Of a DNA stretch of 64,000 nucleotides, positions 11,432 through 28,460 are shown piece after piece (the first letter of the stretch is position 1; each line of letters begins with the position of its first letter). The stretch spans positions 1,056,001-1,120,000 of the forward strand of contig CBDCDS010000003.1 in the NCBI GenBank assembly GCA_965215365.1, in the 5' to 3' direction. Made by a program: the position numbers and the translations under genes. The stretch is from Gammaproteobacteria bacterium (lineage in GTDB: Bacteria; Pseudomonadota; Gammaproteobacteria; Eutrophobiales; Eutrophobiaceae). The notes under the pieces were generated by a model that did no database searches, was not told where the DNA came from, and saw nothing but the letters and a program-made list of their open reading frames with translations.

Positions 11432-11982
11432 TGCTCGAGCATCCATCTGTGCCAGCCGCTCTCCGCTTGCCACTTGTTCACCAGGAAGGCCACCGGTTTC
11501 ATCGGCGGCGGCAGGTTTGTTACATTTATCACACCCTTGAGCGCGGCGCGCAACCTGGTCCCGCGCCTGAGTTCCGCAGCGCCCAACAGCAGGTACCGGT
11601 CGAGCCTGCCCATGTATTTCAGCGCGTTTTCCAGGGTGTCAAACTGGCGCTGCTCGGCTTTGCTGACGGTGGTAACGATATATACATCCGACAACGGCAA
11701 GTAGTCCAGCCGGTATTTTATCCGGGCCTCCCGGTACAGCCGGTCGCGCCACCACCGGCGCTGTTCCCTGACCCTGATGATAATGCGCACATCCAGTTCC
11801 ACACCGTGGTCCAGTGCCTCCCGCAAGTCCTCATCCAGGTTAAAATTGATACGCGCATTGATGTAATAATCGCCTGCCACCCGCTCGGAGGAGACCGCAT
11901 CCACAACGATCCCGCCCGCCGCCGCGTGCAGGTCGGCACTGAGCAGCACCAGCAAAAACAGGGTGACGTATGCTGTTTTCAT
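11428..11982 (-). CDS. DUF4390 domain protein
   Basis: Signal peptide, EALDHGVEL, RRWW and LPPPM; usual neighbour upstream of ntrY. Confidence 0.75.
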   Translation of the reverse strand: MKTAYVTLFLLVLLSADLHAAAGGIVVDAVSSERVAGDYYINARINFNLDEDLREALDHGVELDVRIIIRVREQRRWWRDRLYREARIKYRLDYLPLSDVYIVTTVSKAEQRQFDTLENALKYMGRLDRYLLLGAAELRRGTRLRAALKGVINVTNLPPPMKPVAFLVNKWQAESGWHRWMLEQ

Positions 11983-11998
11983 AAACAAGCGCTATTAT

Positions 11999-12152
11999 GG
12001 GCACCTCTAAAAATTAGAGGTGCCCGTGCAGCATAAGGATATGCTGCCAGTAACAGCAAGCACGTAAGTGCTTGAAAATGAAGGAAACGGAAAATCACAT
12101 TTTTTCGTTTCCGTCTCTAAAAATGCCACGGAGGGCATTTTTAGAGGTTACC
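11999..12152. mobile_element. MITE-like element family B (long form) at the left edge of the CRISPR island
   Basis: Terminal inverted repeats GGGCACCTCTAAAAAT ... ATTTTTAGAGGTTACC; interior similar to 41551-41742. Confidence 0.7.
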
Positions 12153-12294: not shown

Positions 12295-13305
12295 ATGACA
12301 GTTTCCACCAGACACAGAACTGAGGCACGCAGCAACCGGGAGGCCGCCGGCAACACCGCGTCGTTGGGTGAGATTAAACTGCCTCTGGCCTGTTATCGTT
12401 TCCGGTTGCGTGCGCGGGAGACGATGCGCTTGCCGGATTATTCTGGATCCGCTTGGCGGGGGGCGTTCGGCAACAGCTTGAAAAAGCTGGTATGTATCAC
12501 CCGCGAACCACAATGTGAGCCTTGCTTGCTGTATCGCAACTGTATTTATCCTTATGTCTTTGAAACACCGCCTGACCCGAGCACAGGCAAACTGCGGAAA
12601 TACAATGCTGCGCCGCATCCGTTTGTACTACGCCCCGGAACCACCCTGAGAGGATATCTGCACCCGGATACCGAACACAACTTGTACCTGACGCTGTTCG
12701 GTCGCGGCAATAACCACCTTCCTTATATCATACACGCACTGGAGCGAGCGACCCAACGAGGCCTGGGCAAGCATAAAGGCAAATTTGATTTGCTGGAATT
12801 GCAACAATATCAGGCTGACGACTGGCGCGGGGTCTATACCCCCGGCGGTGAATTACAGCATCACGCCGCGACTTATGTGGATACGCCGGATTGTCCGGCG
12901 CGCATGACTCTTGAGTTTTTTACACCGATGCGCTGCAAGACTGAAGGTCACTTGGTGACACCGGAACGTTTTACCTTTAAGACGCTGTTCTCCTCCTTGT
13001 TAAGACGGCTGTCCTTGCTCACCACGTTTCATACCGATACCCCGCTGGCAACCGATTTCAAAGGGCTGACCCAGGCCGCCGGAGAAATACCCACGGCACA
13101 CTCTGAGTTACGCTGGCATGACTGGACCCGTTATTCCAGTCGCCAGGACACTCTGATGCAGTTGGGAGGCCTGTCAGGTACGGTAAGCTTCGAAAGCAGC
13201 GAGCTGGCCGTTTTCTGGCCCTACCTGTGGTTGGGACAATGGACTCATGCCGGTAAAAACACCAGCATGGGGCTGGGTAAATATAAAATCACCAACAGGT
13301 ACTGA
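12295..13305 (+). CDS. cas6: Cas6 pre-crRNA processing endoribonuclease
   Basis: GSAWRGAFG, Cys cluster, PHPFVL and C-terminal G-rich loop HAGKNTSMGLGKY. Start uncertain. Confidence 0.9.
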   Translation: MTVSTRHRTEARSNREAAGNTASLGEIKLPLACYRFRLRARETMRLPDYSGSAWRGAFGNSLKKLVCITREPQCEPCLLYRNCIYPYVFETPPDPSTGKLRKYNAAPHPFVLRPGTTLRGYLHPDTEHNLYLTLFGRGNNHLPYIIHALERATQRGLGKHKGKFDLLELQQYQADDWRGVYTPGGELQHHAATYVDTPDCPARMTLEFFTPMRCKTEGHLVTPERFTFKTLFSSLLRRLSLLTTFHTDTPLATDFKGLTQAAGEIPTAHSELRWHDWTRYSSRQDTLMQLGGLSGTVSFESSELAVFWPYLWLGQWTHAGKNTSMGLGKYKITNRY

Positions 13306-13308
13306 GCG

Positions 13309-14562
13309 GTGTCTGTGATGAATGATATTGCCACAAAAACCAGGCCATCCTGCTCTCCGGCTGATTTCAAACGACGCATATTGCTGTGTGTAGCCGGTTT
13401 GTCCCCCCAGGTCATTACGGAAACGCTGTATGAACTGGTCACGCGCAAGGACCGGTTTATCCCAACCTGCATTTACGTCATTACTACGCGCGAGGGCGCA
13501 CACCGGATACGTCTCAACTTGCTGGAACCGGACCCGAACGAACAACATTTTCACCGGCTTTGCGCCGAACTGGATATCGATCCGGAAAGCATCGCGTTCC
13601 ATATTGATACCATCTGTCGAAACAGCCCCCCTACATCTGTCGGTATACCTGCTATCGGGGTCAGTCAGACAGCGCTGGCATCGGACATCGCAGTGCTGGA
13701 CGATATCCGTAGCATCACCGACAATGAAATTGCCGCTGACGCCATTACCAGTACCGTGCGCACCCTGACGGCAGACCCGGAGGCAGCAATCCACGCATCC
13801 ATCGCCGGCGGGCGCAAAACCATGGGTTTCTACCTGGGCTATACGCTGAGCCTGTTCGGACGGGAGCAGGACCGCCTGTCTCACGTTCTGGTATCGCCCC
13901 CATTTGAAGCGCATCCGCAATTTTACTATCCCCCGCAAAGCCCCAAGGTACTGCGTGACCGGGACAACCGGCCCATACACACCGGGGACGCCAGCATCAC
14001 ACTAGCTGATATTCCGTTCGTGCGTTTGCGCGGGCACTTGGACAGCAGCATCCTGGGTGAGGGCATAAGCTATTCAGAGACCGTCGCCCGCACCCAGCGC
14101 AATGTCAATCCGCCACACTTGGAACTGGATACAGCGAGCAAGTTGATAGATTGTGGCGGCTGTCGCGTTGAGCTGTCACCTAGCCTGTTTGCGTTTTATG
14201 CCTGGTTTGCACGCCGTCTGCTGGCAGGCAGGCCGGGAGTCCACTGGGCTCAGCCTGACGCCGCGCAAGAATACCTTGCCGAATATGCCCGAGTGGTCGG
14301 TGATTGCAGTGGCGACTACGAAAACGCGTGTAAAAGCCTGCAGCGGGGTATGGACCAGTCGTTTTATGAGCCGAAGATCAGTAAAATTAACCGTCGGCTT
14401 GAAAATATGCTCGGCAAGGGGCCGGCAAGACCGTATCTGCTGAGTAATATCGGCACGGTTCCCGGCACGCGTTATCGGCTTAAAGGGTTGACGTTGAAAC
14501 ATGAACAGGTACATTCGCAGGGAGAGCATATTCTATCGGCAAGCTTGCCACAGATAACATGA
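13309..14562 (+). CDS. CRISPR-associated CARF protein, NE0113/TIGR02584 family (putative ring nuclease) with C-terminal wHTH-like region
   Basis: ILLCVAGLSPQVITETLY, HASIAGGRKTMGFY and DRLSHVLV. Confidence 0.82.
   Translation: MSVMNDIATKTRPSCSPADFKRRILLCVAGLSPQVITETLYELVTRKDRFIPTCIYVITTREGAHRIRLNLLEPDPNEQHFHRLCAELDIDPESIAFHIDTICRNSPPTSVGIPAIGVSQTALASDIAVLDDIRSITDNEIAADAITSTVRTLTADPEAAIHASIAGGRKTMGFYLGYTLSLFGREQDRLSHVLVSPPFEAHPQFYYPPQSPKVLRDRDNRPIHTGDASITLADIPFVRLRGHLDSSILGEGISYSETVARTQRNVNPPHLELDTASKLIDCGGCRVELSPSLFAFYAWFARRLLAGRPGVHWAQPDAAQEYLAEYARVVGDCSGDYENACKSLQRGMDQSFYEPKISKINRRLENMLGKGPARPYLLSNIGTVPGTRYRLKGLTLKHEQVHSQGEHILSASLPQIT
14538..14549. promoter_or_regulatory. Palindromic GGCAAGCTTGCC motif upstream of cas10
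   Basis: Perfect 12-bp palindrome about 60 bp before the cas10 start. Confidence 0.55.
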
Positions 14563-14610: not shown

Positions 14611-17286
14611 ATGTCAGAACCATCCACTCTCATAACACCATCTGCACGCGTAGCGCTGGCTGCTTTTTTGCATGATCTTGGCAAGTTTGCTGAGCGGGCA
14701 AAAATTGACGCTTCTGACGAGCTTATCGAGAATAATAAGCAGCTTTATTGTCCCTATCACCAGGAAGGCAAGTGGTTCTCTCACGTACATGCGGCTTACA
14801 CTGCTATTGCTATGGATGAGATTGAATCCTATCTGCCACCCTTGAAAGGCCATGATGTAGCGCCTTTCGCAGCATGGAGCGCAGCTCAGGTGGATGACTC
14901 ACTTATCAATGGGGCTGCTAAACATCACAAACCGGAGACGTTTCTGCAGTGGGTTATTGCCACCGCTGATCGCGTGGCATCAGGTTTCGAACGTAATGAG
15001 TTTGAACAGTACAACAAGGCGAGAGAAGGCACAAAAGCCGGAAAAAACCATTACACAGCCCGCCAGTTGACCTTGTTCGAGCAGATAAGGCTGGAACACA
15101 AGAACAGACAACAGGAATATCAGTATCGTTACAAACTCAAGCCGCTTTGTCCTGACGCGCTGGCGCCTGTATCAGCACGGGATTATGAACCTGTCGATGA
15201 TGATGTGGCGCAAAGGGAGTACCGGGAGCTCTGGGATGGCTTCGTCGATGGGCTGAAAAAAATACCTGAAGCTCACAGGAAAAATCTGCCGTTGTGGTTG
15301 GGACATTTTGAGTCTTTATGGGCCTGTTTTACTCACGCCATCCCATCTGCCACGGCGTTCAACACCCGCCCGGATGTCTCACTTTACGATCATTCCCGTA
15401 CTACGGCAGCCCTGGCAGTGGCCATCTGGCGTTATCACCGCGAGCACGCGCATGATGAAGCTGAAGTGGTCCGGCGCACGAGTAAGCGAGATGATTGGGA
15501 TGAGAAAAAGTTATTGCTTATCCAGGGGGATTTTTTCGGAATCCAGAATTTCATTTTTGCGAGTGGCGGGGAAACCCAAAAGCGCGCCGCCAAGCTGTTG
15601 CGAGGGCGGTCGTTCTATGTGTCGTTACTGATGGAATGTGCGGCATTGAAAGTGCTCGATCTTTTGGGCTTGCCGGCGACCAGCCAGATCATCAACGCCG
15701 CGGGAAAATTCCTGATTGTTGCACCGAATACCGAAGCCGTGCAGGAGGAGTTGGCTCAAATCCAACAGGAGTTAGACCGGTGGTTCAAGGAACACACCTG
15801 GGCTGCCTCAGGGATTGGCCTTGCGTCGCTGCCGGCTTGTTGTAACGATTTCCTGAAACGCTCGGGGTCAGGTAATGAACCAGCCCCGTTTCAGCAACTG
15901 ATGGACAAGCTGTTTGCAAAGCTGGAGCAGGCTAAACTGCAACGTTTTGACCTGTGCAGTCAGACGCAGGAGTCGGCTGTTTTCAGCAGTTTTTTTAAGC
16001 AGTTTCAACCTGACAAGGGTGTTTGTCGGATCGATGGCAAATCACCGGCCACGCGCCAGGACGAGAATGATAGCGAGGTGTTCCTGAGTGATCTGGCGCA
16101 TGACCAGATTCGAGTTGGAGAATGTCTTACCCGGTACGAGCGTATATTGGTCACACGTTCAAACATCGACCACCATACCCTGCAGCTACCTGTGTTCGGG
16201 TATTTTGTCAGCTTCACTAGGGACGAAGAGATAACCGGCAGGTTCAGTAAACTGGCGGTGGATGGAGACCTTTTACAAGCCTTCGACTTCTCTCTACCTG
16301 AGTCCGGGGGCGCGCCTCTCTGGAACGGCTATGCCAGAAGGCAAATTAACGGTTCCGTGCCCAGGTTTCAGGATTCCGATCTGGAGCATCCGCACAAGTA
16401 CCGGGGAGTGGATGAGCCAGCCAGGATTGGCGAGGTAAAGACATTGAGTCACATTGCCTGTGAGGATGCAGGAGTTGAGGCATTGATGACTCTGAAAGGT
16501 GATGTGGATAATCTTGGACAGATATTCAAAGAAGGGCTGGTGCATCCGGGCGTGGAGGGGATGACCTTTGCCAAAATGGCAGCTTTGTCACGGCAAATGG
16601 ACGCTTTTTTCACAATATATCTGCCTTATCGATGTCGGCAGGATTATCCTGATACCTATACGGTATTCGCTGGTGGGGATGATTTTTTCCTGATCGGGCC
16701 TTGGCATTCGCAGCTCGGTCTGGCCCGGAAAATGCGATACTGGTTCAGTGAGTATGTTGCCCATAACCGCGAAGTGCATTTTTCGATTGGCCTGACCATG
16801 ACCAAGCCCGGGTTGCCAATACGCCACTTGGCAGCTCAGTCTGAACATGCTTTAGAAGCAGCCAAAGGGCATAATCTCCGAGCAGTAAAACCGGCGCCAA
16901 AGAATGCCGTTACCTGTTTCGGACACAGCGTTGGCTGGAATGAGTTCGAGGCGCTGATGGAAAATGTCAGCGCCTTGGAGATGTTGGCTGAAAAGATAAG
17001 GCTCAGTACAGGTTACCTGTATGGCCTGTTGCAGTTAACGGACATGCGGGCAGAAATTGATAAAAAACTGGAAAATGCCTTATGGCGCGCCTGGTTTGCT
17101 TATCGCACCAAGCGGATGCTTGAACGTGACCATGGTCTGGATGAGGAGCAACGACAGGAATATCAGAGTACATTAGCTGCAACCATCGCAGAAAATGGGA
17201 TACAAAAGCACAAACGAGCATACAAAATTGCCTTGTTTACCTATCTCTATCAACATCGTGGGGAAGAGGTTCTAATACATGAATAG
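14611..17286 (+). CDS. cas10: Type III-A Cas10/Csm1
   Basis: HD nuclease motif LHDLGK, DVSLYDH, LLRGRSF, KGDVDNLG and intact Palm motif FAGGDD. Confidence 0.96.
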   Translation: MSEPSTLITPSARVALAAFLHDLGKFAERAKIDASDELIENNKQLYCPYHQEGKWFSHVHAAYTAIAMDEIESYLPPLKGHDVAPFAAWSAAQVDDSLINGAAKHHKPETFLQWVIATADRVASGFERNEFEQYNKAREGTKAGKNHYTARQLTLFEQIRLEHKNRQQEYQYRYKLKPLCPDALAPVSARDYEPVDDDVAQREYRELWDGFVDGLKKIPEAHRKNLPLWLGHFESLWACFTHAIPSATAFNTRPDVSLYDHSRTTAALAVAIWRYHREHAHDEAEVVRRTSKRDDWDEKKLLLIQGDFFGIQNFIFASGGETQKRAAKLLRGRSFYVSLLMECAALKVLDLLGLPATSQIINAAGKFLIVAPNTEAVQEELAQIQQELDRWFKEHTWAASGIGLASLPACCNDFLKRSGSGNEPAPFQQLMDKLFAKLEQAKLQRFDLCSQTQESAVFSSFFKQFQPDKGVCRIDGKSPATRQDENDSEVFLSDLAHDQIRVGECLTRYERILVTRSNIDHHTLQLPVFGYFVSFTRDEEITGRFSKLAVDGDLLQAFDFSLPESGGAPLWNGYARRQINGSVPRFQDSDLEHPHKYRGVDEPARIGEVKTLSHIACEDAGVEALMTLKGDVDNLGQIFKEGLVHPGVEGMTFAKMAALSRQMDAFFTIYLPYRCRQDYPDTYTVFAGGDDFFLIGPWHSQLGLARKMRYWFSEYVAHNREVHFSIGLTMTKPGLPIRHLAAQSEHALEAAKGHNLRAVKPAPKNAVTCFGHSVGWNEFEALMENVSALEMLAEKIRLSTGYLYGLLQLTDMRAEIDKKLENALWRAWFAYRTKRMLERDHGLDEEQRQEYQSTLAATIAENGIQKHKRAYKIALFTYLYQHRGEEVLIHE

Positions 17287-17773
17287 TAAGAGACATCACA
17301 GCAACGAAAGCCAACAACACAGGCAGCACGGTGGGACACAATCCCGGTCAGGATTCCCTTTTGAAATAGAGCGTATCGCGCTTGCAGAGGATGAATTAAT
17401 GTCGGATATGTTCAGCAGTGTTGCGGAAGATGCCGCAAAACACGTAGCCGAATGGGATGAGCAGAGCAAGGAAGCAGGGAAGCAAGCCAGCAAATCGACA
17501 CAGTTGCGTAAGTTCTACGATGAGATTTGTATGTGGCACAGCAAGGTTCAAGATGATAGCGCGTGTCTGCAAAAAAACTTGCCTTTGATACTGATGTTGA
17601 AAGCAAAAGTTGCTTATTCGGAAGGTCGTAAACATGTAAACAAAGCCTATGTAAACGTCTTAAACCGTTGCTTGGATCAACTGCAAGCAAGAGCAGAGCC
17701 ACGAACACTTCAAAATCTGAAATTATTCATGGAGGCCTTTACCGGTTTTTACAAGGTTTACGGCCCAAAATAA
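17279..17773 (+). CDS. csm2: Csm2 small subunit
   Basis: STQLRKFYDE, LKAKVAY and FMEAFTGFYK. Confidence 0.92.
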   Translation: MNSKRHHSNESQQHRQHGGTQSRSGFPFEIERIALAEDELMSDMFSSVAEDAAKHVAEWDEQSKEAGKQASKSTQLRKFYDEICMWHSKVQDDSACLQKNLPLILMLKAKVAYSEGRKHVNKAYVNVLNRCLDQLQARAEPRTLQNLKLFMEAFTGFYKVYGPK

Positions 17774-17788
17774 TCGGGAGATACCAAG

Positions 17789-18511
17789 ATGCAACTTACA
17801 GCAATCAGAATAATCACTGGAGAAATAGAGCTACTCAGCGGCTTACATATCGGTGGTGGCGATGCCGATATGCACATCGGTGGTATCGATAACGCAGTGA
17901 TCAAACATCCGGTTACACAGCAACCGTATATTCCCGGTTCCAGTATCAAGGGTAAAATGCGCAGTCTGCTGGAATGGGAGTTGGGAGTGGTTGGCCATAC
18001 GCAGGGGAAGCCACTCAGTTTCAGCCACGTTGAAAAGCTGGAAGACGACCAACAAGAAGGCGCTAAAATCATGCTGAAACTTTTTGGCGGCGCCCCCGAC
18101 AATAATGTACAACACCTAGTTAAGGAAATCGGCCCCACCCGTCTGGCTTTTTGGGACTGCTCCCTCGACACTGATTGGGTCAAGGAAATGGAAGACAGGA
18201 ATCTCCTGTTAACGGAGGCCAAGATGGAAAACTCCATCGACCGTATTCGTGGTGTGGCTGAGAACCCGCGTCAGACAGAGCGCGTGCCCGCCGGCGCGAA
18301 ATTCTGTTTCAAACTGAGCCTGCGTCAGCATGAAGGCGACGGCAACCTGATGGAGGTAATCCTCAAGGGGCTGCGTCTGATAGAGCTTTCCGGACTCGGA
18401 GGGTCAGGTTCGCGCGGTTACGGCAAGGTCAGGTTCAATAAGCTGGCCTGTGAAAACGAGTCTCTTGAAGAGCATATGAAAACTATTGATCCGTTTCTTT
18501 CTACGGACTGA
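17789..18511 (+). CDS. csm3: Csm3 RAMP backbone RNase
   Basis: GLHIGG, IGGIDN (catalytic Asp), PYIPGSSIKGKMRSLLE and LGGSGSRGYG. Confidence 0.95.
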   Translation: MQLTAIRIITGEIELLSGLHIGGGDADMHIGGIDNAVIKHPVTQQPYIPGSSIKGKMRSLLEWELGVVGHTQGKPLSFSHVEKLEDDQQEGAKIMLKLFGGAPDNNVQHLVKEIGPTRLAFWDCSLDTDWVKEMEDRNLLLTEAKMENSIDRIRGVAENPRQTERVPAGAKFCFKLSLRQHEGDGNLMEVILKGLRLIELSGLGGSGSRGYGKVRFNKLACENESLEEHMKTIDPFLSTD

Positions 18512-18522
18512 TCGATATACCT

Positions 18523-19512
18523 GTGAAGCGCTATTGTATCACCGTCGAGCCGGAATCCGCTTTCGGCACGCCGCTAAAAGGCGACACCTTGTTTGGTCAA
18601 CTGTGTTGGGCGATTTTGAACCGGCACGGTCAGGAGCACCTGGAAGTATTATTGGGCGATTATTCGAGACGGCCCTTCGCTGTTTGTTCGGACGGTTTCC
18701 CCAACGCCTATTTACCGCGCCCATCCCTGCCTGTTTCCTGTTTCAGTCTCCCGCAAGGTGAGGATTACAAAGCTATCAAGAAAAGACTCTGGATACCTAT
18801 GGATACATTGGACGCTCCGGTCCCACAGTGGTTACACACTGCCAAATCGGACAGTGAACTGCCAGTCAAACCGGGCGTGAGCAAAGCACAACGCCAGAAT
18901 ACGCAAAAACCGACATGGGAACATTATCAGCCCCAACCACATAACAGCATTAACCGCCTGACCGGCACGACTGGCGAGGGCATGTTTGCCCCGTACAGTC
19001 AGCAGCAAATCTGGTATTGGCCAGGCAGTAGCCTCAATGTGTACCTGTTGCTTGATGAGACGCAATTATCCCTGCAGGAGGTCCGGACGTTGCTATGTGA
19101 TATCGGTGTTTTTGGTTATGGTCGCGACGCAAGTATCGGGCTTGGAAAATTCAGGTTGACTGATTGTGTCGAAGCGGAATTTAACGCGCCTGAAAATGCG
19201 AATGCCTGCCTGACGTTGGCGCCATGCGCCCCGCAAGGGATGGGCATGGATGGCCGCCACAGCTACTACAACACTGTTACTCGTTTCGGTCGTCACGGCG
19301 ATGTTGGCGTGCATGGGGCGCATGGTCCTTTCAAAGCGCCGGTACTATTGGCCGACACTGGCGCAGTATTTACCCCAGTCAAGGAAGGTCAAACCCGCAT
19401 CGGCCAGGCTCTTGGCGGACTCTCAAAGACGATTCCGGGCACAGTACACCAAGGCTATGCGCCCTGCGTCCCCATCTACCTGCCGCCAAAGACACAGCAG
19501 GTGATAACGTGA
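18523..19512 (+). CDS. csm4: Csm4 RAMP subunit
   Basis: GDTLFGQLCW, HNSINRLTG and GYGRDASIGLGKF. Confidence 0.9.
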   Translation: MKRYCITVEPESAFGTPLKGDTLFGQLCWAILNRHGQEHLEVLLGDYSRRPFAVCSDGFPNAYLPRPSLPVSCFSLPQGEDYKAIKKRLWIPMDTLDAPVPQWLHTAKSDSELPVKPGVSKAQRQNTQKPTWEHYQPQPHNSINRLTGTTGEGMFAPYSQQQIWYWPGSSLNVYLLLDETQLSLQEVRTLLCDIGVFGYGRDASIGLGKFRLTDCVEAEFNAPENANACLTLAPCAPQGMGMDGRHSYYNTVTRFGRHGDVGVHGAHGPFKAPVLLADTGAVFTPVKEGQTRIGQALGGLSKTIPGTVHQGYAPCVPIYLPPKTQQVIT

Positions 19513-21140
19513 AATTTTTAGACGAGCATCATCTGGCAATTACCCTGCTGACACCGGTGCATATCGGTTGTGGTGAAGACTACACGCCGACTGATTACGT
19601 GATTGATGACGATGCCCTGTTTGCCTTTGACAGTGCTGGAATCATCAATGCGTTTTCGGAAACGGCCAGAATACAATTATCAAGGCTGGTCAGCGGCGCT
19701 GTAAAACCGGATGCTCTGATAAATATTCAAAAATTATTCTATGAGCAGCGCGAAGCTCTGATTGCAAAGGCCAGTCACTATCTTCCCGTTGCTGACGGAA
19801 TAATCGAGCTTTATCGAAAAAGCATAGGCAAGGCAGCCCAGCTGGAAAGTAAGGGAAAAAGAGTGGCAAATCGCTTGGAGATGGAACGCACGTTTTACAA
19901 TCCTGTCGACCAGAAACCTGTTATTCCGGGCAGCAGTTTGAAAGGAGCCATCCGGACGGCCTTGCTTAATTCGATAAACCAAGGCAACCCGCTCCGGCTC
20001 AATGAGAAAAACAGAAAATTACAAGGGCGATTGTTTCAATACGACAAGTTTGAAAATGACCCAATGCGGCTGGTGCATTTGGCTGACACGACGCATGACA
20101 GTGATGACATTGTTCATACTGAAATCCGATTTGCAACCAACCACCCCCGGCAGGAACCGAAACGGCCAAGGGGAAAGCAAACGCAGGCGGAAGCTAAAGG
20201 TCCGTATCAACTGTTGGAAATCTTGTCCGGGTTTGGTCCACGCCAATATCGTAGTCGATTAACTGTTCATAGTGTTGAACAAATACGACAAAACCACAGT
20301 TTGCCAAAAGTTGAACTTCGTTGGACAATCAAACAAATTGTGCAGGCCTGCAATGATTTTTATCTCCCGTTGCTGGAACAGGAATTGAAAATTATCAAAG
20401 AGAGGCGATATGCATCTCCCGATTGGGAACAGCAAATGGATGACCTCCTACCCAAAATCCGGCCCGTGCTCAAATCCAATCAGGCCATGGTATTACGCAT
20501 AGGACGCCATAGTGGCGCCGAAGCAGTAACTCTGAATGGTGTGCGGAGCATAAAAATCATGCAGGGAAGAGAGAAACCGAAGTTCAAAGACAAACCACAA
20601 ACCTTATGGTTGGCGGCCAATGCCCAAGACGCCCGTGCACAGATGCTTCCGTTCGGTTGGATTCTGGTTGAAATAAACCCTGCGGAAACGGTGCCGGCAG
20701 CATTGAGGAATTTTGCCGGTAAAACCAGTGACTCCAAGCAGAACTGGTTAAAAAAACAACAATGTCGAATTGCAGATTTACAGGACAAAATTACCCGTAA
20801 AGAGCAACAGGCTCAAGCCGAACAGCAAGCGGAGATTGATCGGCAAAGAGTGGATGCGGAAAAACAAGCGCGTTTGGCCTCCATGAGTAATGAAAAACGG
20901 GCTATCGAGGAGTTACGGGAGCAGTTCACGAAAGCCCAGGCATCCCAGACCTTGACTGCTCAAAGCGTAGTGCCCGATGAGTTAGCCAAGCTGCTCAAAC
21001 AGGCAAGTCAGTGGCCTGAGCGAGAGCGGACAGCCCTGTGCGATTTGGCAGAAGAAATCTACAAACCTCTGGGCATGTTGCGGGGGAAGAAAGGTAAAAA
21101 CCGCAAGACGATAATCCAACAATTAAAAGGACTGAGCTGA
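19509..21140 (+). CDS. csm5: Csm5 RAMP subunit with long helical C-terminal extension
   Basis: GTG at 19509 overlaps the csm4 stop; TPVHIGCGE, IPGSSLKGAIRTA, LRIGRHSG and PFGW. Confidence 0.9.
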   Translation: MKFLDEHHLAITLLTPVHIGCGEDYTPTDYVIDDDALFAFDSAGIINAFSETARIQLSRLVSGAVKPDALINIQKLFYEQREALIAKASHYLPVADGIIELYRKSIGKAAQLESKGKRVANRLEMERTFYNPVDQKPVIPGSSLKGAIRTALLNSINQGNPLRLNEKNRKLQGRLFQYDKFENDPMRLVHLADTTHDSDDIVHTEIRFATNHPRQEPKRPRGKQTQAEAKGPYQLLEILSGFGPRQYRSRLTVHSVEQIRQNHSLPKVELRWTIKQIVQACNDFYLPLLEQELKIIKERRYASPDWEQQMDDLLPKIRPVLKSNQAMVLRIGRHSGAEAVTLNGVRSIKIMQGREKPKFKDKPQTLWLAANAQDARAQMLPFGWILVEINPAETVPAALRNFAGKTSDSKQNWLKKQQCRIADLQDKITRKEQQAQAEQQAEIDRQRVDAEKQARLASMSNEKRAIEELREQFTKAQASQTLTAQSVVPDELAKLLKQASQWPERERTALCDLAEEIYKPLGMLRGKKGKNRKTIIQQLKGLS

Positions 21141-21424
21141 TGCACCCGTTAATCGAGAAGCATCGCGCTGATATACTCGCTTTGGCTGAGCAGTACGGGA
21201 TTGAAAACGTGCGCGTGTTCGGTTCTATGGCAAGAGGCGATGCCGGGGATACCAGCGATGTGGACCTGTTGGTTTTTCTTCCAAAGGGCCAGAGCGCATT
21301 GGCTCTGGGGGGGCTGCTCATGGATGTTCAGGATTTGTTAAAGCGACATGTAGATGTAGTATCAGAACGAGGTCTGCACCCGATGCTGCGAGAGAACATA
21401 CTCAAGGAGGCAGTACCTCTGTGA
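21140..21424 (+). CDS. Minimal nucleotidyltransferase (MNT/MntA-like antitoxin)
   Basis: VFGSMARGDAGDTSDVDLLV fits GSX10DXD. Confidence 0.9.
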   Translation: MHPLIEKHRADILALAEQYGIENVRVFGSMARGDAGDTSDVDLLVFLPKGQSALALGGLLMDVQDLLKRHVDVVSERGLHPMLRENILKEAVPL

Positions 21425-21783
21425 CCCCTACTTCGGAGTCTGATCGATTGATGCTGATGCACATACTTGATTGCATACAGCAGATCTGGGAATATACTGA
21501 AAACAGCCGGGAGGCGTTTTTTGGCTCACAAATGGTGCAGGATGCAACTGTACGTAATCTGCAAGTGCTAGCTGAATCCACCCAGAGACTCAGTGAAGCC
21601 ATCAAGGCTACCCAACAGGATATTCCCTGGCGCAAAATTGCCGGTTTCCGCAATGTTCTTGTCCATAGTTACCTGAGCCTCGACCTTGAGGCAGTATGGT
21701 CTGTAGTTGAGCATAATCTGAAAGATTTGTCTGAGGCAGCGGAAGCAATGTTGCTTATGGCGGACAAGGACACCAAGCCTTGA
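21421..21783 (+). CDS. HEPN/DUF86 (HepT-like) RNase toxin
   Basis: IPWRKIAGFRNVLVHSY fits RX4HXY. Confidence 0.9.
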   Translation: MTPTSESDRLMLMHILDCIQQIWEYTENSREAFFGSQMVQDATVRNLQVLAESTQRLSEAIKATQQDIPWRKIAGFRNVLVHSYLSLDLEAVWSVVEHNLKDLSEAAEAMLLMADKDTKP

Positions 21784-21947: not shown

Positions 21948-23266
21948 ATGAACAAGAAAATCCTTGTCCAGACCGTCGGCGGTTCCCATGAACCGATTCT
22001 TACGTCTATAAAAGAGAACAAGCCTGATTTTATCTGTTTTTTCTGCTCTGGCAAAGACTTGGCGACAGGCAAGCCGGGCTCCGAGAAACAGATTACCGGG
22101 AGGGCAGTGTTATCAAAAAGAGCCCCGGGGATGACAGCCCCAGCCTCCCCAATATTCCTACGTTGGCAGGCCTTGAGAAGGACCAATACGAGGTAGTCAT
22201 CATTCCTGCCGATGAGCCGGATGCAGCATTCAAAAAAATATCCGAGCGTTTGCACAAATTGATATCGCAACATCCGGGGGCTGCTTTTATTGCCGATTAC
22301 ACCGGCGGCACTAAATCGATGACCGCTGCTCTGGTACTGGCAGCAGTGGAACACAGAGAGGTTACCCTGCAACTGGTTACTGGCAATCGAGTCAACTTGC
22401 ATGGTGTGGAATCCGGCATGGGGACAACCGGATTAATACCTATGGAAACCGTTCGTGTGCAGCGGGCCCTTACTCAATTCACCGAGTTCTGGCGCTATTT
22501 TTCCTATGGTGAAGCAGCACGAGGCCTAGTCAACATTAAACCTGCCAAGCCCGGGTTGAAACGCAAGCTAAGAGTATTACTGGATTTAAGCAAGGCCTTT
22601 GGCGCTTGGGACCGGTTTGACCATCAGCAGGCACATAACATCATCGGCAATTATGGCAAGCTGATCGCACCGGCCCATCAGCATCTTCTGAACTCATTAA
22701 CAAATCTTACAACGAAATCAGACCGGCAAACCCTCGGCCTGTTGTGGGACTTGTGGTTCAACGCTTTGCGCCGCGCTGAGCAGGGACGTTATGATGATGC
22801 GGTTGCTCGCTTGTATCGCCTGTTGGAGTGGACTGCACAGTGGATTTTGCAGGTCAATTGCGGTGTCGACAAGACTGGTGATATTCCAGCAGACAAAATA
22901 CCCTCCAGCATGTCCTTACAAGCAAACCCGAAAGGCCAATACCAGGCTGGCCTGCTCAAGGCATGGGAACTGGTCGGCCATCATCACCCGGACAAGAATA
23001 GTGCGGCTTTCCAATTCAGTAAGTGTAAGTTGAAGGCGATGCAGACACAGCTTGAGAAGCGGAACTACTCCATACTGGCTCACGGCTTCAGTCCCATCAG
23101 CGAGGAAGACTGGCGTGCCTTCAGAAACTGGATGAAAGAAAATTTTCTACCCATGCTGAAAATGGAAACGCAGGGAGCCGGGCTAAAAACAATCCCGCAG
23201 CAACTGCCGCAGCGCACTTGGCCAGAGATAGAGCAAATGGATAACATTGCCGACAGTTTCAACTGA
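21948..23266 (+). pseudogene. CARF-HEPN effector (TIGR02710/Csm6-like) split by a single-base frameshift near 22100
   Basis: N-terminal ILVQTVGGSHEPI. Adding one G at 22098-22100 joins QITG to EGSVIKKSPGDDSPSLPNIPTLAGLEKD. Then DYTGGTKSM, YDDAVARLYRLLE and HEPN-type RNYSILAHG. Could be a sequencing error. Confidence 0.75.
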
Positions 23267-23377: not shown

Positions 23378-23671
23378 TTGACTCCCAATGTGAAACGCCG
23401 ACTCTACCTTGCAGCCTACGACATCAGCAGCGCCAGTCGACTGCGGGCCGCACTGTATTTTCTGAAAGGGTTCGCCAGCGGTCGCCAGAAGTCTGTGTTT
23501 GAGTGCTTCCTGACAATGCCGGAACGCAAGGAGTTGGTAACAGGCATCAGTAACATCATTGAGCCGGACGAGGATCGTTTTTTATTGTTACCGCTGGCTT
23601 ATGGTGCCGGCATCGAAACTTTAGGCAGGGGTGTGGCACCGTCAGATGAATCCTATTACTACATAGGGTGA
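23378..23671 (+). CDS. cas2: Cas2 (copy 1)
   Basis: YLAAYDIS, QKSVFEC and EDR. Confidence 0.9.
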   Translation: MTPNVKRRLYLAAYDISSASRLRAALYFLKGFASGRQKSVFECFLTMPERKELVTGISNIIEPDEDRFLLLPLAYGAGIETLGRGVAPSDESYYYIG

Positions 23672-24642
23672 ACAGTATGCTGACCCTGTTCATTGACCGT
23701 AAAAACCTGAAACTGGAACTCGATAATAAATGCCTTTTGGTGCGCCCACCCGGCGCTGTGGTTCAAAGCCTGCCCTTGAATATACTGGACCGTGTTGTCA
23801 TCCGCAGTCAGGTTGCCTTGGATAGTCGCCTGTTGGGAGCCTTGGGGCAGCACAACATTGGTCTGAGTATCATGTACGGCCGCAACGGTCGCCAACATTT
23901 GCAATTATTCAGTCCGGGACACAATGATGCGCGGCGTCGACTTGCCCAGTATGCGCTTTGGAACGATACGCAACGCCGCCTCGACTGGAGTCGCCACCTG
24001 GTGGATGCGAAAGTCTGCGCCCAACGAAGGCTTCTGGAGTACGCGCGTGCACGCCGCCCGGACTTGCGTCATCGACTCACCACCGCTCTGAAAAGTCTGA
24101 ACAATATTATGCCTTCTATTGACAAGGCCACCGACATTGAGGTTTTGCGCGGCCTGGAAGGTTCATCGGCAGCCGTTTACTTCACTGGTTTTCAAAACCT
24201 TTTTGCCGACGGCCTGACATTCACCGGGCGTAACCGACGCCCGCCACGAGATCCGGTTAATGCCTGCCTGTCCTTGGTATATACCATGATCCACAATGAA
24301 GCTGTGCGCGCCTGTCATGGCGCAGGACTGGACCCCTTGCTGGGTTTTTACCATGAACCGGCTTACGGTCGTGAATCCCTGGCCTGTGACATTATTGAAC
24401 CCCTGCGCCCACGGGTTGATCATTGGGTCTGGCAATTGTTTCGCAAGCGTTTGTTAAGAGAAGATAATTTCAGCCGTGAGGGTGGGAGTTGCCTGCTTAA
24501 CAAAAGCGGGCGCAGGATCTTTTTTGAGGGATATGAAACCGAAGCCACACCGTGGCGCCGTTACTTTCGTTTGCAAAGCTATCGCATGGCACGCGCCCTG
24601 TTACAACTTGCTCCGGACTTGCCTGAACTGGAGAGCTCGTGA
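23668..24642 (+). CDS. cas1: Cas1 integrase (catalytic motifs intact)
   Basis: LRGLEG, FTGRNRRPPRDPVNACLS, GFYH and LACDIIEPLRP. Confidence 0.95.
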   Translation: MNSMLTLFIDRKNLKLELDNKCLLVRPPGAVVQSLPLNILDRVVIRSQVALDSRLLGALGQHNIGLSIMYGRNGRQHLQLFSPGHNDARRRLAQYALWNDTQRRLDWSRHLVDAKVCAQRRLLEYARARRPDLRHRLTTALKSLNNIMPSIDKATDIEVLRGLEGSSAAVYFTGFQNLFADGLTFTGRNRRPPRDPVNACLSLVYTMIHNEAVRACHGAGLDPLLGFYHEPAYGRESLACDIIEPLRPRVDHWVWQLFRKRLLREDNFSREGGSCLLNKSGRRIFFEGYETEATPWRRYFRLQSYRMARALLQLAPDLPELESS

Positions 24643-25403
24643 AACCTTGTTACATTCACGGCAAACAGGGTATGCAGATCAGGTTGGATGGTCCGGCACT
24701 GAGCGTCGACGTGCCTGGACAGTCTGCCGTGTTGACGCCGCTCTCCCGGATTTCCCGCATCGTTGTTTCCGGTTCGCCTGACTGTTCGGTGGCGGCTTTG
24801 CTTGCCTGTGCCGAACAAGGGATCACTATCACGTTCCTGCAACATGACGGCGCAGTCAGGGCGCAGTTATTTGGCAACAGCAAGACCCGAGGGGATTTAT
24901 TCACCCACTTGCGCGACCTGCTGGACCGTCCTGACTGGCCGGAGCACTACCAGCTCTGGCTGGAGTCTTCGGCTAGTCGTGCACGATGTGCGCTGTGCCG
25001 TAAATTGGGCTTGCAGCCAGACAGGTCGTCTGGCAGGCGACTGTCTTCGATTCTGAGCAGGCAGATGGATTATCTGATTGACCCGGGTAAACGGGGCTAC
25101 CTGCAACGCCGTCTGCGCGGCTTGTGTGTCGCCTTGGTCAATGAGGTATTACAGCAGGCAGGTCTTGACGCAACACGCTGCCGTTACTTGGAGCAACATC
25201 TTGACATACCGGGTGATTTCGCAAACCTGCTGGCTTTATCCCTGCAGTTGCCACTGATTGACTGGTTGAAGCGGCAATCACGAAATGAACGTATTGACGA
25301 CCGTGATGTGGTTGCGCTATTTGAGCGAAACAGTAAGAGGCTGGAAAATATTGCCCGGCGCTTGACCAGCCGCTTACATGGATTTTTGATTGACCTTACA
25401 TGA
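24639..25403 (+). CDS. Divergent Cas1-like protein (N-terminal domain only recognisable, no catalytic motifs)
   Basis: IRLDGPALSV..PLSRISRIVVSG...AALLACAEQGITITFL parallels the Cas1 N-terminal domain. The C-terminal half lacks the EG, RRPP, H and DxxE motifs. Confidence 0.7.
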   Translation: MKPCYIHGKQGMQIRLDGPALSVDVPGQSAVLTPLSRISRIVVSGSPDCSVAALLACAEQGITITFLQHDGAVRAQLFGNSKTRGDLFTHLRDLLDRPDWPEHYQLWLESSASRARCALCRKLGLQPDRSSGRRLSSILSRQMDYLIDPGKRGYLQRRLRGLCVALVNEVLQQAGLDATRCRYLEQHLDIPGDFANLLALSLQLPLIDWLKRQSRNERIDDRDVVALFERNSKRLENIARRLTSRLHGFLIDLT

Positions 25404-25717
25404 AGCAAAGACTCTATCTCATCGCTTATGATATTTCAGACCCTGGACGCCTTGGGCGCGTGGCCAGATACTTGAGCAAACACGCCTGCCGGGTGCAGTA
25501 TTCAGTGTTTGCCGCGCAGCTGAGCAAATCCCGCTTAAAGGGTTTGCTTTCTGAGCTTGAGGAGATAATAAACCCGGATCAGGATGACATCCGCGCCTAT
25601 CCATTGCCCGCCCGCGGTGAGGTAACGTTGTTGGGTCAACAATTCTTTGCAACCAGCGCGTTACTGGTGCAAAATGGCCCCTGTAGATTGGAACTTCTTG
25701 AAGACCCTGTCGCCTGA
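25400..25717 (+). CDS. cas2: Cas2 (copy 2)
   Basis: YLIAYDISDPGRL, RVQYSVF and DDIRAY. Confidence 0.92.
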   Translation: MKQRLYLIAYDISDPGRLGRVARYLSKHACRVQYSVFAAQLSKSRLKGLLSELEEIINPDQDDIRAYPLPARGEVTLLGQQFFATSALLVQNGPCRLELLEDPVA

Positions 25718-25904
25718 AATAGTCTCTGACTTTTGCGTGATAGGTGAACGTGAGGATTTTGTTGCTCTTTCAAAATCTGGCATTGGATTGAATCAATCTG
25801 TGAAAAATGGTAGCTTGGCTGTGCGGCTGCTCTCGCAGCAGGCTGTTTTTTCTGCAATCACCCTTGTAAGTGATTGTTTGAAAAAGTTCTTCTTGGCGCG
25901 GGGG
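25718..25904 (+). promoter_or_regulatory. CRISPR leader
   Basis: AT-rich non-coding stretch between cas2 and the first repeat; the degenerate repeat lies at the far end of the array. Confidence 0.75.
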
Positions 25905-28238
25905 GTTTGAACCGCAGACCTGATTAAGAAGGGATTAAGACCCGGTGGAGCACGAAAAACAAAACTCGCCCATCATGGTTTGAACCGCAGACCTGATTAA
26001 GAAGGGATTAAGACAAAGGTTGGCGTCGATGAGGTCGGCGTGGCTCAAGTGTTTGAACCGCAGACCTGATTAAGAAGGGATTAAGACCCCAGATTGGCGC
26101 CTTCTAGGTTGGCGGCGCTCAGGTCGTTTGAACCGCAGACCTGATTAAGAAGGGATTAAGACCAGCGCATGATCGACTATTTCGATCATGCGCTGTTCGT
26201 TTGAACCGCAGACCTGATTAAGAAGGGATTAAGACATTGTGCGCTGGGGGTATGATATAATTGCGATGTTTGAACCGCAGACCTGATTAAGAAGGGATTA
26301 AGACCAAGTTGGCGCCGGTGAGGTCGGCGTCTTCCAAGTTGTTTGAACCGCAGACCTGATTAAGAAGGGATTAAGACGGTGAGGTTGGCGCGTTTCAGGT
26401 TGGCGCCATCTAGGTTTGAACCGCAGACCTGATTAAGAAGGGATTAAGACTCACATAACCTGTGGTGATCAGGTTATGTTCTTCTGTTTGAACCGCAGAC
26501 CTGATTAAGAAGGGATTAAGACTTTCAATCATGCGCTGCTCTTCGGAAAGCCTAGCTGTTTGAACCGCAGACCTGATTAAGAAGGGATTAAGACCGCTAA
26601 TTTGTGGTTTAAGAAAAAAGTCATGGTGACGTTTGAACCGCAGACCTGATTAAGAAGGGATTAAGACCATACAGCTTGTCTCCCTTTTTGACGTATTGGT
26701 TGTTTGAACCGCAGACCTGATTAAGAAGGGATTAAGACCAGCAGCGCTTGATCGACTATTTCAATCATGCGCTGCGTTTGAACCGCAGACCTGATTAAGA
26801 AGGGATTAAGACCCTTCTTTAACTCGGCTTGCCATTCCCGCCGAGGTTTGAACCGCAGACCTGATTAAGAAGGGATTAAGACTTCCTTGAACAAAACATT
26901 CCCCCACATCAGGCTGTTTGAACCGCAGACCTGATTAAGAAGGGATTAAGACGGCGCCTGTCAGGTTGGCGCCTTCCAACTTGGTTTGAACCGCAGACCT
27001 GATTAAGAAGGGATTAAGACTGATGGGCTTCCCGAATTTATCGCTCAAGTAGTCTAAAGTTTGAACCGCAGACCTGATTAAGAAGGGATTAAGACTCTTG
27101 GCGCCGGCGAGTTTGGCGTCTTCCAACTTGGTTTGAACCGCAGACCTGATTAAGAAGGGATTAAGACAATAGGGCGGAATTTAAGGCCGCCGGATTTTTG
27201 GGTTTGAACCGCAGACCTGATTAAGAAGGGATTAAGACTTGGCGCAGTAGAGGTTGGTGCCTTCCATCTTGTTTGAACCGCAGACCTGATTAAGAAGGGA
27301 TTAAGACGCTTCTTTACGATCTTCTTTGCTTCTTTTTTGCTGTGTTTGAACCGCAGACCTGATTAAGAAGGGATTAAGACGCGCCGAATGCAATGGAGAT
27401 TCTCGCGAATCACGATCAGTTTGAACCGCAGACCTGATTAAGAAGGGATTAAGACGCTCCTCGTAGTCCATCCTGTCGTCGATTTTGGTCGTTTGAACCG
27501 CAGACCTGATTAAGAAGGGATTAAGACGTACGCTGTTGGCTCCCTACTTCTGCCTGTGACGCCGTTTGAACCGCAGACCTGATTAAGAAGGGATTAAGAC
27601 AAAAAAGCGCCAAGCGCAAATCTACCGAAACTGAAGAGTTTGAACCGCAGACCTGATTAAGAAGGGATTAAGACGCACAGCGCTGCCGATCCACCGATTG
27701 ATATGGTGGTGTTTGAACCGCAGACCTGATTAAGAAGGGATTAAGACTCATCATCATGTATAGGCCTTTTTTGTGTAATTATTGTTTGAACCGCAGACCT
27801 GATTAAGAAGGGATTAAGACGCCTCTGATTGTTGCGCCTCAACCTGATCATTGGTTTGAACCGCAGACCTGATTAAGAAGGGATTAAGACGACAGAATGT
27901 TACGTTTTCTAGTCGGGCAGCAACGTTTGAACCGCAGACCTGATTAAGAAGGGATTAAGACGAGGTCGGCGCCGTTCAGGTTGGCGCCAGTGAGGGTTGT
28001 TTGAACCGCAGACCTGATTAAGAAGGGATTAAGACTTGGTGATCCCGTTGATGTTGTTGCCGGACAAGGTTTGAACCGCAGACCTGATTAAGAAGGGATT
28101 AAGACATTAATGGGAAAAGTCAAGTGATTTTTCACCGCCGAAGTTTGAACCGCAGACCTGATTAAGAAGGGATTAAGACGGCATCTCCTCTAGTAGGTTT
28201 TAAGTTAAATGGAAGGTTGAACCGCAGACCTGATTAAG
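25905..28238 (+). CRISPR. CRISPR array: 32 complete 37-bp repeats plus a truncated terminal repeat; 32 spacers of 31-38 nt
   Basis: Repeat GTTTGAACCGCAGACCTGATTAAGAAGGGATTAAGAC, whose 3' ATTAAGAC fits a type III 8-nt tag. The last repeat at 28215 is GGTTGAACCGCAGACCTGATTAAG, cut off there. Confidence 0.98.
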
Positions 28239-28460
28239 TCGCTTATTGCCTTGTGAAACATGATTGCTCTCAATAAGTTATGATCATACTGCTACTCTTT
28301 CCGCATAACCCACTGCGCTTGATGCGCCCTCGCTGGTCTTGGTTCTGCCTGCGGGCACGTGCTTGTTCAACCATAGCTACCGCTATGCTTATCGTCGCAG
28401 GCACCCGCAGGCAGAACCAATCCGGCGCGATCTTCGCATCACTGGGTGAGATCTGCGGGC
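28237..28460. mobile_element. MITE-like element family A (left end missing), fused to the terminal CRISPR repeat
   Basis: Near-identical to 36077-36317; ends ACTGGGTGAGATCTGCGGGC followed by TAA. Confidence 0.85.

Follow-up and report, generated by a model that had tools for sequence, protein, structure and literature searches.

Adaptation modules that resemble the one reported here in part have been described in two bacteria. In Escherichia coli, four Cas1 subunits form two asymmetric dimers, and in each of them one Cas1 is catalytic while the other (Cas1b) contacts Cas2, according to a description of the complex (PMC10011333). In the Vibrio vulnificus type III-D module RT-Cas1-Cas2A-Cas2B (RT, reverse transcriptase), acquisition depends on Cas2A as well as on Cas2B, for which a heterodimer was proposed; the same paper gives two Cas2 genes as typical of RT-CRISPR clade 6 and as frequent in clade 13 (PMC6821258). 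We analysed a 64,000-nt stretch of DNA from a Gammaproteobacteria bacterium (contig CBDCDS010000003.1, positions 1,056,001 to 1,120,000 of the forward strand; hereafter, the window) that carries a four-gene adaptation module, cas2a-cas1-cas1*-cas2b, in which cas1* encodes a second Cas1 paralogue devoid of an active site. In every solved Cas1-Cas2 integrase known to us, Cas1 and Cas2 are each encoded by a single gene.

The module is conserved in order and adjoins type III CRISPR loci. Our leading interpretation, held tentatively and at not quite an even call, is that it encodes a conserved four-protein type III adaptation complex in which Cas1* would most likely be the non-catalytic partner of the integrase and Cas2a/Cas2b its heterodimeric core. 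Compared with the E. coli type I-E Cas1(4)-Cas2(2) complex (PDB 5ds4), the Cas1 and Cas2 folds are alike and the Cas1* model superposes on the Cas1 chains, but in E. coli one gene serves both Cas1 roles and one gene both Cas2 subunits, whereas here a separate dead Cas1 gene and two Cas2 genes are found. The V. vulnificus module is likewise a type III-associated adaptation operon with two different Cas2 proteins; unlike it, the module in the window has no RT, an extra dead Cas1 and another gene order. Five RT-Cas1-like loci that we collected (L055-L059) have a single Cas2 each and are silent on the orthology of Cas2A and Cas2B.

Cas4-Cas1-Cas2 complexes owe their asymmetry, which has been linked to spacer orientation, to an additional subunit. 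Cas4 is a nuclease that reads the protospacer-adjacent motif (PAM), while type III systems use no PAM; in contrast to Cas4, Cas1* has no nuclease site.

The family has been catalogued before. The PADLOC-DB profile PDLC01185, "Cas1, diverged variant, second in the loci", matches the window Cas1* (E 1.2e-13) as well as 19 of the 21 Cas1* family members compared with it (best E 1.3e-44), and the position that it describes fits that of cas1*, directly after cas1; the entry consists of a profile with a one-line description only. The PADLOC Cas profiles presumably come from the Makarova/Koonin classification sets. A search of the freely readable full-text literature returned no description of a cas2-cas1-cas1-cas2 module, of a heteromeric Cas1 or of a function, partners or a distribution for PDLC01185. 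The module is a widespread, catalogued and unstudied variant of Cas1-Cas2. Its novelty is limited, since PADLOC-DB covers the diverged second Cas1 with a profile and experiments have set a precedent for the idea of two Cas2 proteins. By dividing the catalytic and structural roles of Cas1 between two genes, and by adding a second Cas2 gene, the module would make testable what a non-catalytic Cas1 contributes, whether the asymmetry of an integrase can be hard-wired and how important a heterodimeric Cas2 is.

Organisation of the module and its two Cas2 proteins

The four genes of the module are:
23378-23671, forward strand: cas2a, open reading frame (ORF) of 97 amino acids (aa), Pfam PF09827 at 42.7 bits
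23668-24642, forward strand: cas1, catalytic, 324 aa, Pfam PF01867 at 256 bits, full length
24639-25403, forward strand: cas1*, Cas1 paralogue without active site, 254 aa
25400-25717, forward strand: cas2b, 105 aa, Pfam PF09827 at 68.3 bits

An initial annotation, made from the sequence of the window alone, described four overlapping and coupled genes. The ORFs lie exactly where it placed them, and neighbouring genes overlap by 4 nt at each of the three junctions (GTGA, GTGA and ATGA, in that order). In the related loci the junctions are mostly between -4 and +10 nt. The orthologues of cas2a and cas1 start later, by three or four codons; judging from these alignments, the true start of cas2a is probably the GTG at 23390 (giving 93 aa) and that of cas1 may be the ATG at 23677, with which the first 4-nt overlap would become a short gap.

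The same annotation had called the two Cas2 proteins divergent, and this was borne out. Both pass PF09827 (cut-off 23.8 bits), and they share 38% identity over 80 residues. With TIGR01573 (cut-off 24.5 bits), Cas2b scores 47.8 bits and Cas2a 22.2 bits, slightly under the cut-off. Each belongs to a separate orthologous group, that of Cas2a being marked by GGQKSVFECFLT and a C-terminal P.DP.FFYV tail, and that of Cas2b by VQYSVF and DD(V/I)R.YPLP; the Y and D of the N-terminal YD motif are invariant in both groups. The locus-derived rows of three of the alignments used here, those of Cas1 and Cas2a among them, end one residue early.

Cas1* has the fold of Cas1 without its active site

Cas1 matches PF01867 over profile positions 1-282 of 283 and TIGR00287 at 198 bits. 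Its active-site residues E164, H229 and D241 are intact and invariant in 21 of 21 aligned orthologues, E244 being almost invariant, in agreement with the annotation of one catalytic Cas1. Cas1*, on the other hand, is recognised by the Pfam Cas1 family over residues 9-87 only (profile positions 5-83 of 283; 35.7 bits, cut-off 22.3), and with TIGR00287 it scores 27.0 bits, under the cut-off of 71.7. Its identity with Cas1 (25%) is confined to the first 100 residues. When the two profiles were compared by hhalign, they aligned over 253 columns, the whole length of Cas1*, with a probability of 97.5% and an E value of 5e-12. The AlphaFold2 model of Cas1* has a predicted local distance difference test score (pLDDT) of 93.0 and a predicted template-modelling (TM) score (pTM) of 0.90, and its best PDB match by Foldseek is a Cas1 chain, 4xtk_D (E 4.6e-9; TM score 0.75, normalised to the model); next come Cas1 chains of E. 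coli, Synechocystis and others and one casposase. Cas1* is thus modelled with the two-domain fold of Cas1, an N-terminal beta domain followed by a C-terminal helical domain. The retained N-terminal domain had been noted in the initial annotation; the model refines this, in that the C-terminal half is also predicted to be a helical domain of the Cas1 type.

The segment that bears the GLEG glutamate (E164) and the RRPPRDPVN motif is deleted from Cas1*. A leucine stands opposite H229, and the aspartate opposite D241 is not conserved. Among 132 diverse members of the Cas1* family, no column is invariant. Ten positions are nearly so (L4, Y5, L21, P34, R40, A53, L54, C57, G71 and W107); none of these is a Glu, His or Asp, and all except W107 lie in the N-terminal domain. 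The lack of catalytic motifs that had been pointed out for the 254-aa paralogue of the window thus holds across the whole family.

Distribution, gene order and co-inheritance

A search of 1.84 billion representatives with a Cas1* profile gave 298 cluster representatives at E <= 1e-30, a number that rises to 736 at E <= 1e-10. The 150 family representatives with the highest scores are 128-302 aa long, mostly 245-286. Conservation of the four-gene order had been put forward in the initial annotation as a check on its reading, and the order proved widely conserved from two starting points. Seeding with Cas1* in 400 sampled genomes of the class found 25 loci with long matches, and the order cas2a-cas1-cas1*-cas2b is present in 24/24 uncut loci (23 by blastp alone); L019 is cut at a contig end, and the cas1* of L023 was missed by blastp yet is present. 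An apparent Cas1*-Cas2b fusion in L023 was rejected as an open-frame artefact of high G+C content, the real cas1* lying in another frame (L023:1453-2241).

Seeding with Cas2a, 185,579 species-representative genomes yielded at least 533 relatives, with methanotrophs and nitrifiers among the hosts, and the order was analysed in the best 80 of these. Ten of the 80 loci end less than 2,300 nt past cas2a and are unjudgeable. All four families occur in order in 64 of the 70 that could be judged, 60 of them clean and four with one gene matched in two pieces (cas1 in L067 and L111, cas1* in L075 and cas2b in L108). The six exceptions are L064, L065, L103, L110, L118 and L132. Catalytic cas1 was matched in two frames in L014, L024, L067 and L111, reflecting a frameshift or an assembly error, mostly in metagenome-assembled genomes.

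The four-gene module is widespread and found in several phyla. By record titles, its hosts include Methylococcales, Nitrosomonas, Competibacteraceae, Chromatiaceae, Burkholderiales, Nitrospirales and Bryobacteraceae, and the cultured Methylotuvimicrobium buryatense 5G and Methylomicrobium sp. wino1 are among the hosts of the related loci. Within the order of the window's bacterium, Cas1* occurs in 4/126 genomes, counting the window's own, and within its genus in one of the 22 other genomes; this patchy occurrence suggests horizontal spread. Across 74 non-redundant loci, the pairwise distances of the four proteins correlate with one another (r 0.89-0.93), so that the four genes are inherited, or move, as one unit.

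The cassette is tied to type III systems generally and to one repeat family particularly. Orthologues of the csm effector genes of the window are found in L035, L047 and L053, and a Cmr2-type cas10 lies 6-9 kb from the module in G114, G012 and G178. Moreover, an orthologue of the CARF-HEPN gene of the window stands directly 5' of cas2a in L035, L036, L039, L047 and L048, and orthologues of cas6 adjoin the module in L043, L046 and L053.

Selection on Cas1*

A further check proposed in the initial annotation was the ratio of nonsynonymous to synonymous change (dN/dS, omega). The sole pair with unsaturated synonymous change is L020 and L021, from the same genus, for which Cas1* has a dN of 0.059, a dS of 0.395 and an omega of 0.15 by the NG86 method or 0.14 by YN00. 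In this pair, omega is 0.07 for Cas1, 0.05-0.09 for Cas2a and ~0.01 for Cas2b. The window and L032, also of one genus and 72% identical, give 0.165 for Cas1* (YN00), with dS already at 1.4. These ratios of about 0.14-0.17 point to purifying selection on Cas1*.

A putative four-protein integrase and the evidence against it

In the complex that we propose, Cas1 would be the catalytic integrase subunit, and Cas1* a structural partner that takes the role of the second Cas1 of each E. coli dimer and contacts Cas2. Cas2a and Cas2b would pair as a heterodimer at the centre, and spacers would be inserted at the leader-proximal end of the adjoining array. Cas1* would improve or tune integration and would not be indispensable. 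We infer the physical assembly, its stoichiometry and the position of Cas1* within it, and a heteromer of four proteins seems the most economical reading of the data. A prediction of the Cas1*-Cas1 complex, run without controls, gave scores of 0.15 and 0.09 against a mark of 0.32, which speak neither for nor against binding.

Several observations weigh against this proposal. No fused Cas1*-Cas1 or Cas1*-Cas2 was found among the proteins of 446-2000 aa, which is weak evidence. Cas1* is also the fastest-evolving of the four, with a mean p-distance of 0.65, compared with 0.53 for Cas2b, 0.46 for Cas1 and 0.41 for Cas2a. In diverged pairs its omega reaches 0.42-0.82, values that are unreliable because dS is saturated (0.68-1.58 by NG86, which yields no value for L009/L011) and the omega of Cas1 in these pairs is itself 0.14-0.64.

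The remaining points come from the Nitrospirales. Two single-contig genomes of this group (L064 and L065) carry cas2a-cas1-cas2b and the leader, with ~45 nt at the place of cas1*. Over 1,660 nt, the DNA of the two operons is 90% identical, and the deletion junctions align; the deletion is most simply taken as ancestral to both. No Cas1* was found elsewhere in either genome, and other kinds of Cas1 gene are present in both. The two arrays share the repeat and have 32 and 12 spacers, and none of the 32 x 12 spacer pairs reaches 80% identity. It thus seems that these arrays kept renewing their spacers without Cas1*, although another Cas1 acting in trans, or the exchange of whole arrays, may be the explanation. 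In a third Nitrospirales locus, L061, cas1* has lost ~20 residues in frame, and with them the conserved PLxRxSR strand. Cas2a, cas1 and cas2b persist in L061, L064 and L065, together with large and fully different arrays; such loss or damage in a persisting module would not befall a subunit that is strictly obligate. In this lineage, Cas1* is being lost and both Cas2 genes are kept. The three-gene deletion form offers a natural control. The dedicated non-catalytic subunit of the initial annotation holds, then, insofar as Cas1* is conserved, selected and non-catalytic, but it seems dispensable in L064 and L065.

A possible accessory role for Cas1*

These losses would be more easily accommodated if Cas1* were an accessory or regulatory factor, either a dominant-negative brake that limits self-acquisition or a recogniser of the leader or of the substrate. 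We consider this unlikely, although it is the alternative that survives best. A factor of this kind could be dispensable in one lineage and evolve fastest of the four, and the retained N-terminal domain would permit pairing with Cas1 and its titration; yet Cas1* has a fixed place between cas1 and cas2b, the overlaps suggest coupled and near-stoichiometric synthesis, and in the loci examined Cas1* was not found beyond the four-gene context. The leader, for its part, has a conserved motif that some factor could read. Its location is:
25718-25904, forward strand: leader, 187 nt, between cas2b and the first repeat

The leader is placed on the cas2b side because the array has its degenerate repeat at the opposite end. 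In most of 22 aligned leaders, distant loci included, a motif like CAACCCCCTTTGTAAG..ATTG is found about 35-60 nt 5' of repeat 1; either the integrase or a host factor is a candidate to recognise this site.

The array and the orientation of its spacers

The array follows directly:
25905-28251, forward strand: CRISPR array, 32 identical 37-nt repeats GTTTGAACCGCAGACCTGATTAAGAAGGGATTAAGAC plus one degenerate terminal repeat

It holds 32 spacers of 31-38 nt. In the related loci for which sequence is available, the array adjoins the module, usually directly after cas2b; the repeats are 36-37 nt long and end in GGGATTAAGAC (ATTACGAC in one array), and their orientation relative to the cas genes is constant. 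Read in the sense of the CRISPR RNA (crRNA), the spacers of this repeat family are pyrimidine-rich, with a purine fraction of 0.455 and an AT skew of -0.14 (1,101 spacers from 57 arrays), and the purine fraction is below 0.5 in 50/57 arrays. Coding strands tend to be purine-rich. Pyrimidine-rich spacers therefore fit crRNAs that are antisense to mRNAs. In addition, the reverse complements of nine window spacers read as pentapeptide repeats of the A(N/D)Lxx type, and all nine have the same orientation (9/9). These nine, nos. 2, 3, 6, 7, 15, 17, 19, 29 and 30 (26015-28068) of the 31 analysed, are apparently antisense to pentapeptide-repeat coding sequence. Counts of open frames in the window spacers were uninformative (59 forward, 64 in the reverse complement).

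An oriented bias of this kind is what an intrinsically asymmetric complex of Cas1, Cas1*, Cas2a and Cas2b might produce, by selecting substrates or fixing orientation in place of a PAM, Cas4 or an RT, and the initial annotation had read it so. We judge this improbable. A heterodimeric Cas2 core would be expected to break the two-fold symmetry of the integrase, and V. vulnificus offers a precedent for two Cas2 proteins that are both required (PMC6821258). Both the family-wide bias and the co-orientation of the nine pentapeptide-repeat-like spacers would suit the idea, as would the absence of an RT from the genome and of cas4 from the locus. However, type III interference requires the crRNA to pair with the transcript, so that selection alone predicts a strand bias, and in an RT-free Thermus system counter-selection gave such a bias, as summarised in a review (PMC9048733). 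The arrays of L064 and L065, which have no Cas1*, are equally biased (purine fractions 0.475 and 0.431, against 0.455 for the family), which makes it unlikely that Cas1* sets spacer orientation. Moreover, the prespacer is not known to have any asymmetric feature for such a complex to read, and searches of the bacterium's own genome and of a phage collection gave no protospacers, only chance-level matches (best E 0.2-0.7 in the phage collection). The bias is probably due mainly to selection for crRNAs that pair with transcripts. Thus, the strand bias noted in the initial annotation is real across the family, in 50 of the 57 arrays, but gives no support to oriented integration by Cas1*, and the Cas1*-less Nitrospirales arrays, which show the same bias and in which turnover seems to have continued, are some evidence against a role of Cas1* in orienting spacers.

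A specific form of the asymmetric complex can be pictured, and we would give it only a small chance. Obligately asymmetric, it would be built as (Cas1-Cas1*)2 on a Cas2a-Cas2b heterodimer, its two ends dividing the leader-side and spacer-side attacks between them; combined with an asymmetric prespacer feature, for example a transcription-derived end, this would set orientation without a PAM. The three-gene form of the Nitrospirales would then be partly degenerate and still asymmetric through Cas2a/Cas2b.

The lack of Cas4 and RT noted in the initial annotation stands for the RT throughout the genome and for cas4 within the locus. No RT (PF00078) was found in the genome (97.6% complete), and the 324-aa Cas1 has no extension. 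Cas4 has a single match in the genome, a Cas4-Cas1 fusion that lies about 600 kb from the module and is accompanied by a different array of its own. This fusion is a 573-aa open frame outside the window (G000:C3:478324-479817), and its array has 37 repeats of a different sequence. At least two similar pentapeptide-repeat-like spacers are present in that second array (G000:C3:474890-477600), so that genes of one kind seem to have been sampled by both CRISPR systems.

Some of the window spacers are themselves structured. Strong inverted repeats are present in spacers 4, 8 and 12 (26163-26198, 26451-26485 and 26739-26775), spacer 4 folding at -24.5 kcal/mol (z -10.5). As a set, the 31 spacers are more structured than shuffled sequences, with a mean minimum free energy of -7.76 versus -5.40, beyond all 50 shuffled sets. 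Spacers 4, 9 and 12 are variant forms that overlap one target region.

Two separate assemblies, or decay, as possible alternatives

The order of the genes can also be read as two back-to-back pairs, cas2a-cas1 and cas1*-cas2b, of which Cas2a and Cas1 would form a working integrase and Cas1* and Cas2b a dead complex serving, for example, in prespacer capture. The faster-evolving members are indeed Cas1* and Cas2b. This arrangement is nevertheless very unlikely: cas2b is intact where cas1* was lost (L064 and L065) and must have a role without Cas1*; the partial distance correlations are positive for six of six pairs (0.21-0.46) and favour no pair; and V. vulnificus needs both Cas2 proteins with a single Cas1 (PMC6821258). 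Finally, that Cas1* is a decaying, functionless duplicate is hardly credible, since the loss of its active site and the loss of, or damage to, the gene in a few loci stand against intact frames of ~255 aa across phyla in the 298 cluster representatives mentioned above, a low omega and a confidently predicted fold (pLDDT 93).

Genomic surroundings

By gene content, with cas10/csm1, csm2-5, cas6 and an adjoining array, the locus is of type III-A (Csm). The genes 5' of the module are:
12295-13305, forward strand: cas6, 336 aa, Pfam PF10040 CRISPR_Cas6 (E 1.4e-19)
13309-14562, forward strand: NE0113-family CARF/ring-nuclease-like protein, NCBIfam TIGR02584 at 221.6 bits, also Pfam PF09623
14611-17286, forward strand: cas10/csm1, NCBIfam TIGR02578 at 692.8 bits (cut-off 170)
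17279-17773, forward strand: csm2, NCBIfam TIGR01870, above cut-off
17789-18511, forward strand: csm3, NCBIfam TIGR02582, above cut-off
18523-19512, forward strand: csm4, NCBIfam TIGR01903, above cut-off
about 19530-21140 (start approximate), forward strand: csm5, NCBIfam TIGR01899, above cut-off
21140-21783, forward strand: MNT/HepT toxin-antitoxin-like pair, Pfam PF01909 (E 3.3e-15) and PF01934 (E 2.5e-25)
22163-23266, forward strand: TIGR02710-family CARF-HEPN protein, TIGR02710 at 179.5 bits, Pfam Csm6 HEPN (E 7e-23)

The island is flanked by an ntrY/ntrX-like two-component pair on one side and by rsmB-fmt-def on the other. Just 5' of cas6, an ORF of 223 aa (11365-12036) has no Pfam or NCBIfam match. 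The MNT/HepT nucleotidyltransferase-toxin pair interrupts the cas operon between csm5 and the CARF-HEPN gene. Outside the window, an isolated fragment of a Cas1 N-terminal domain is present at G000:C3:1530969-1531196.

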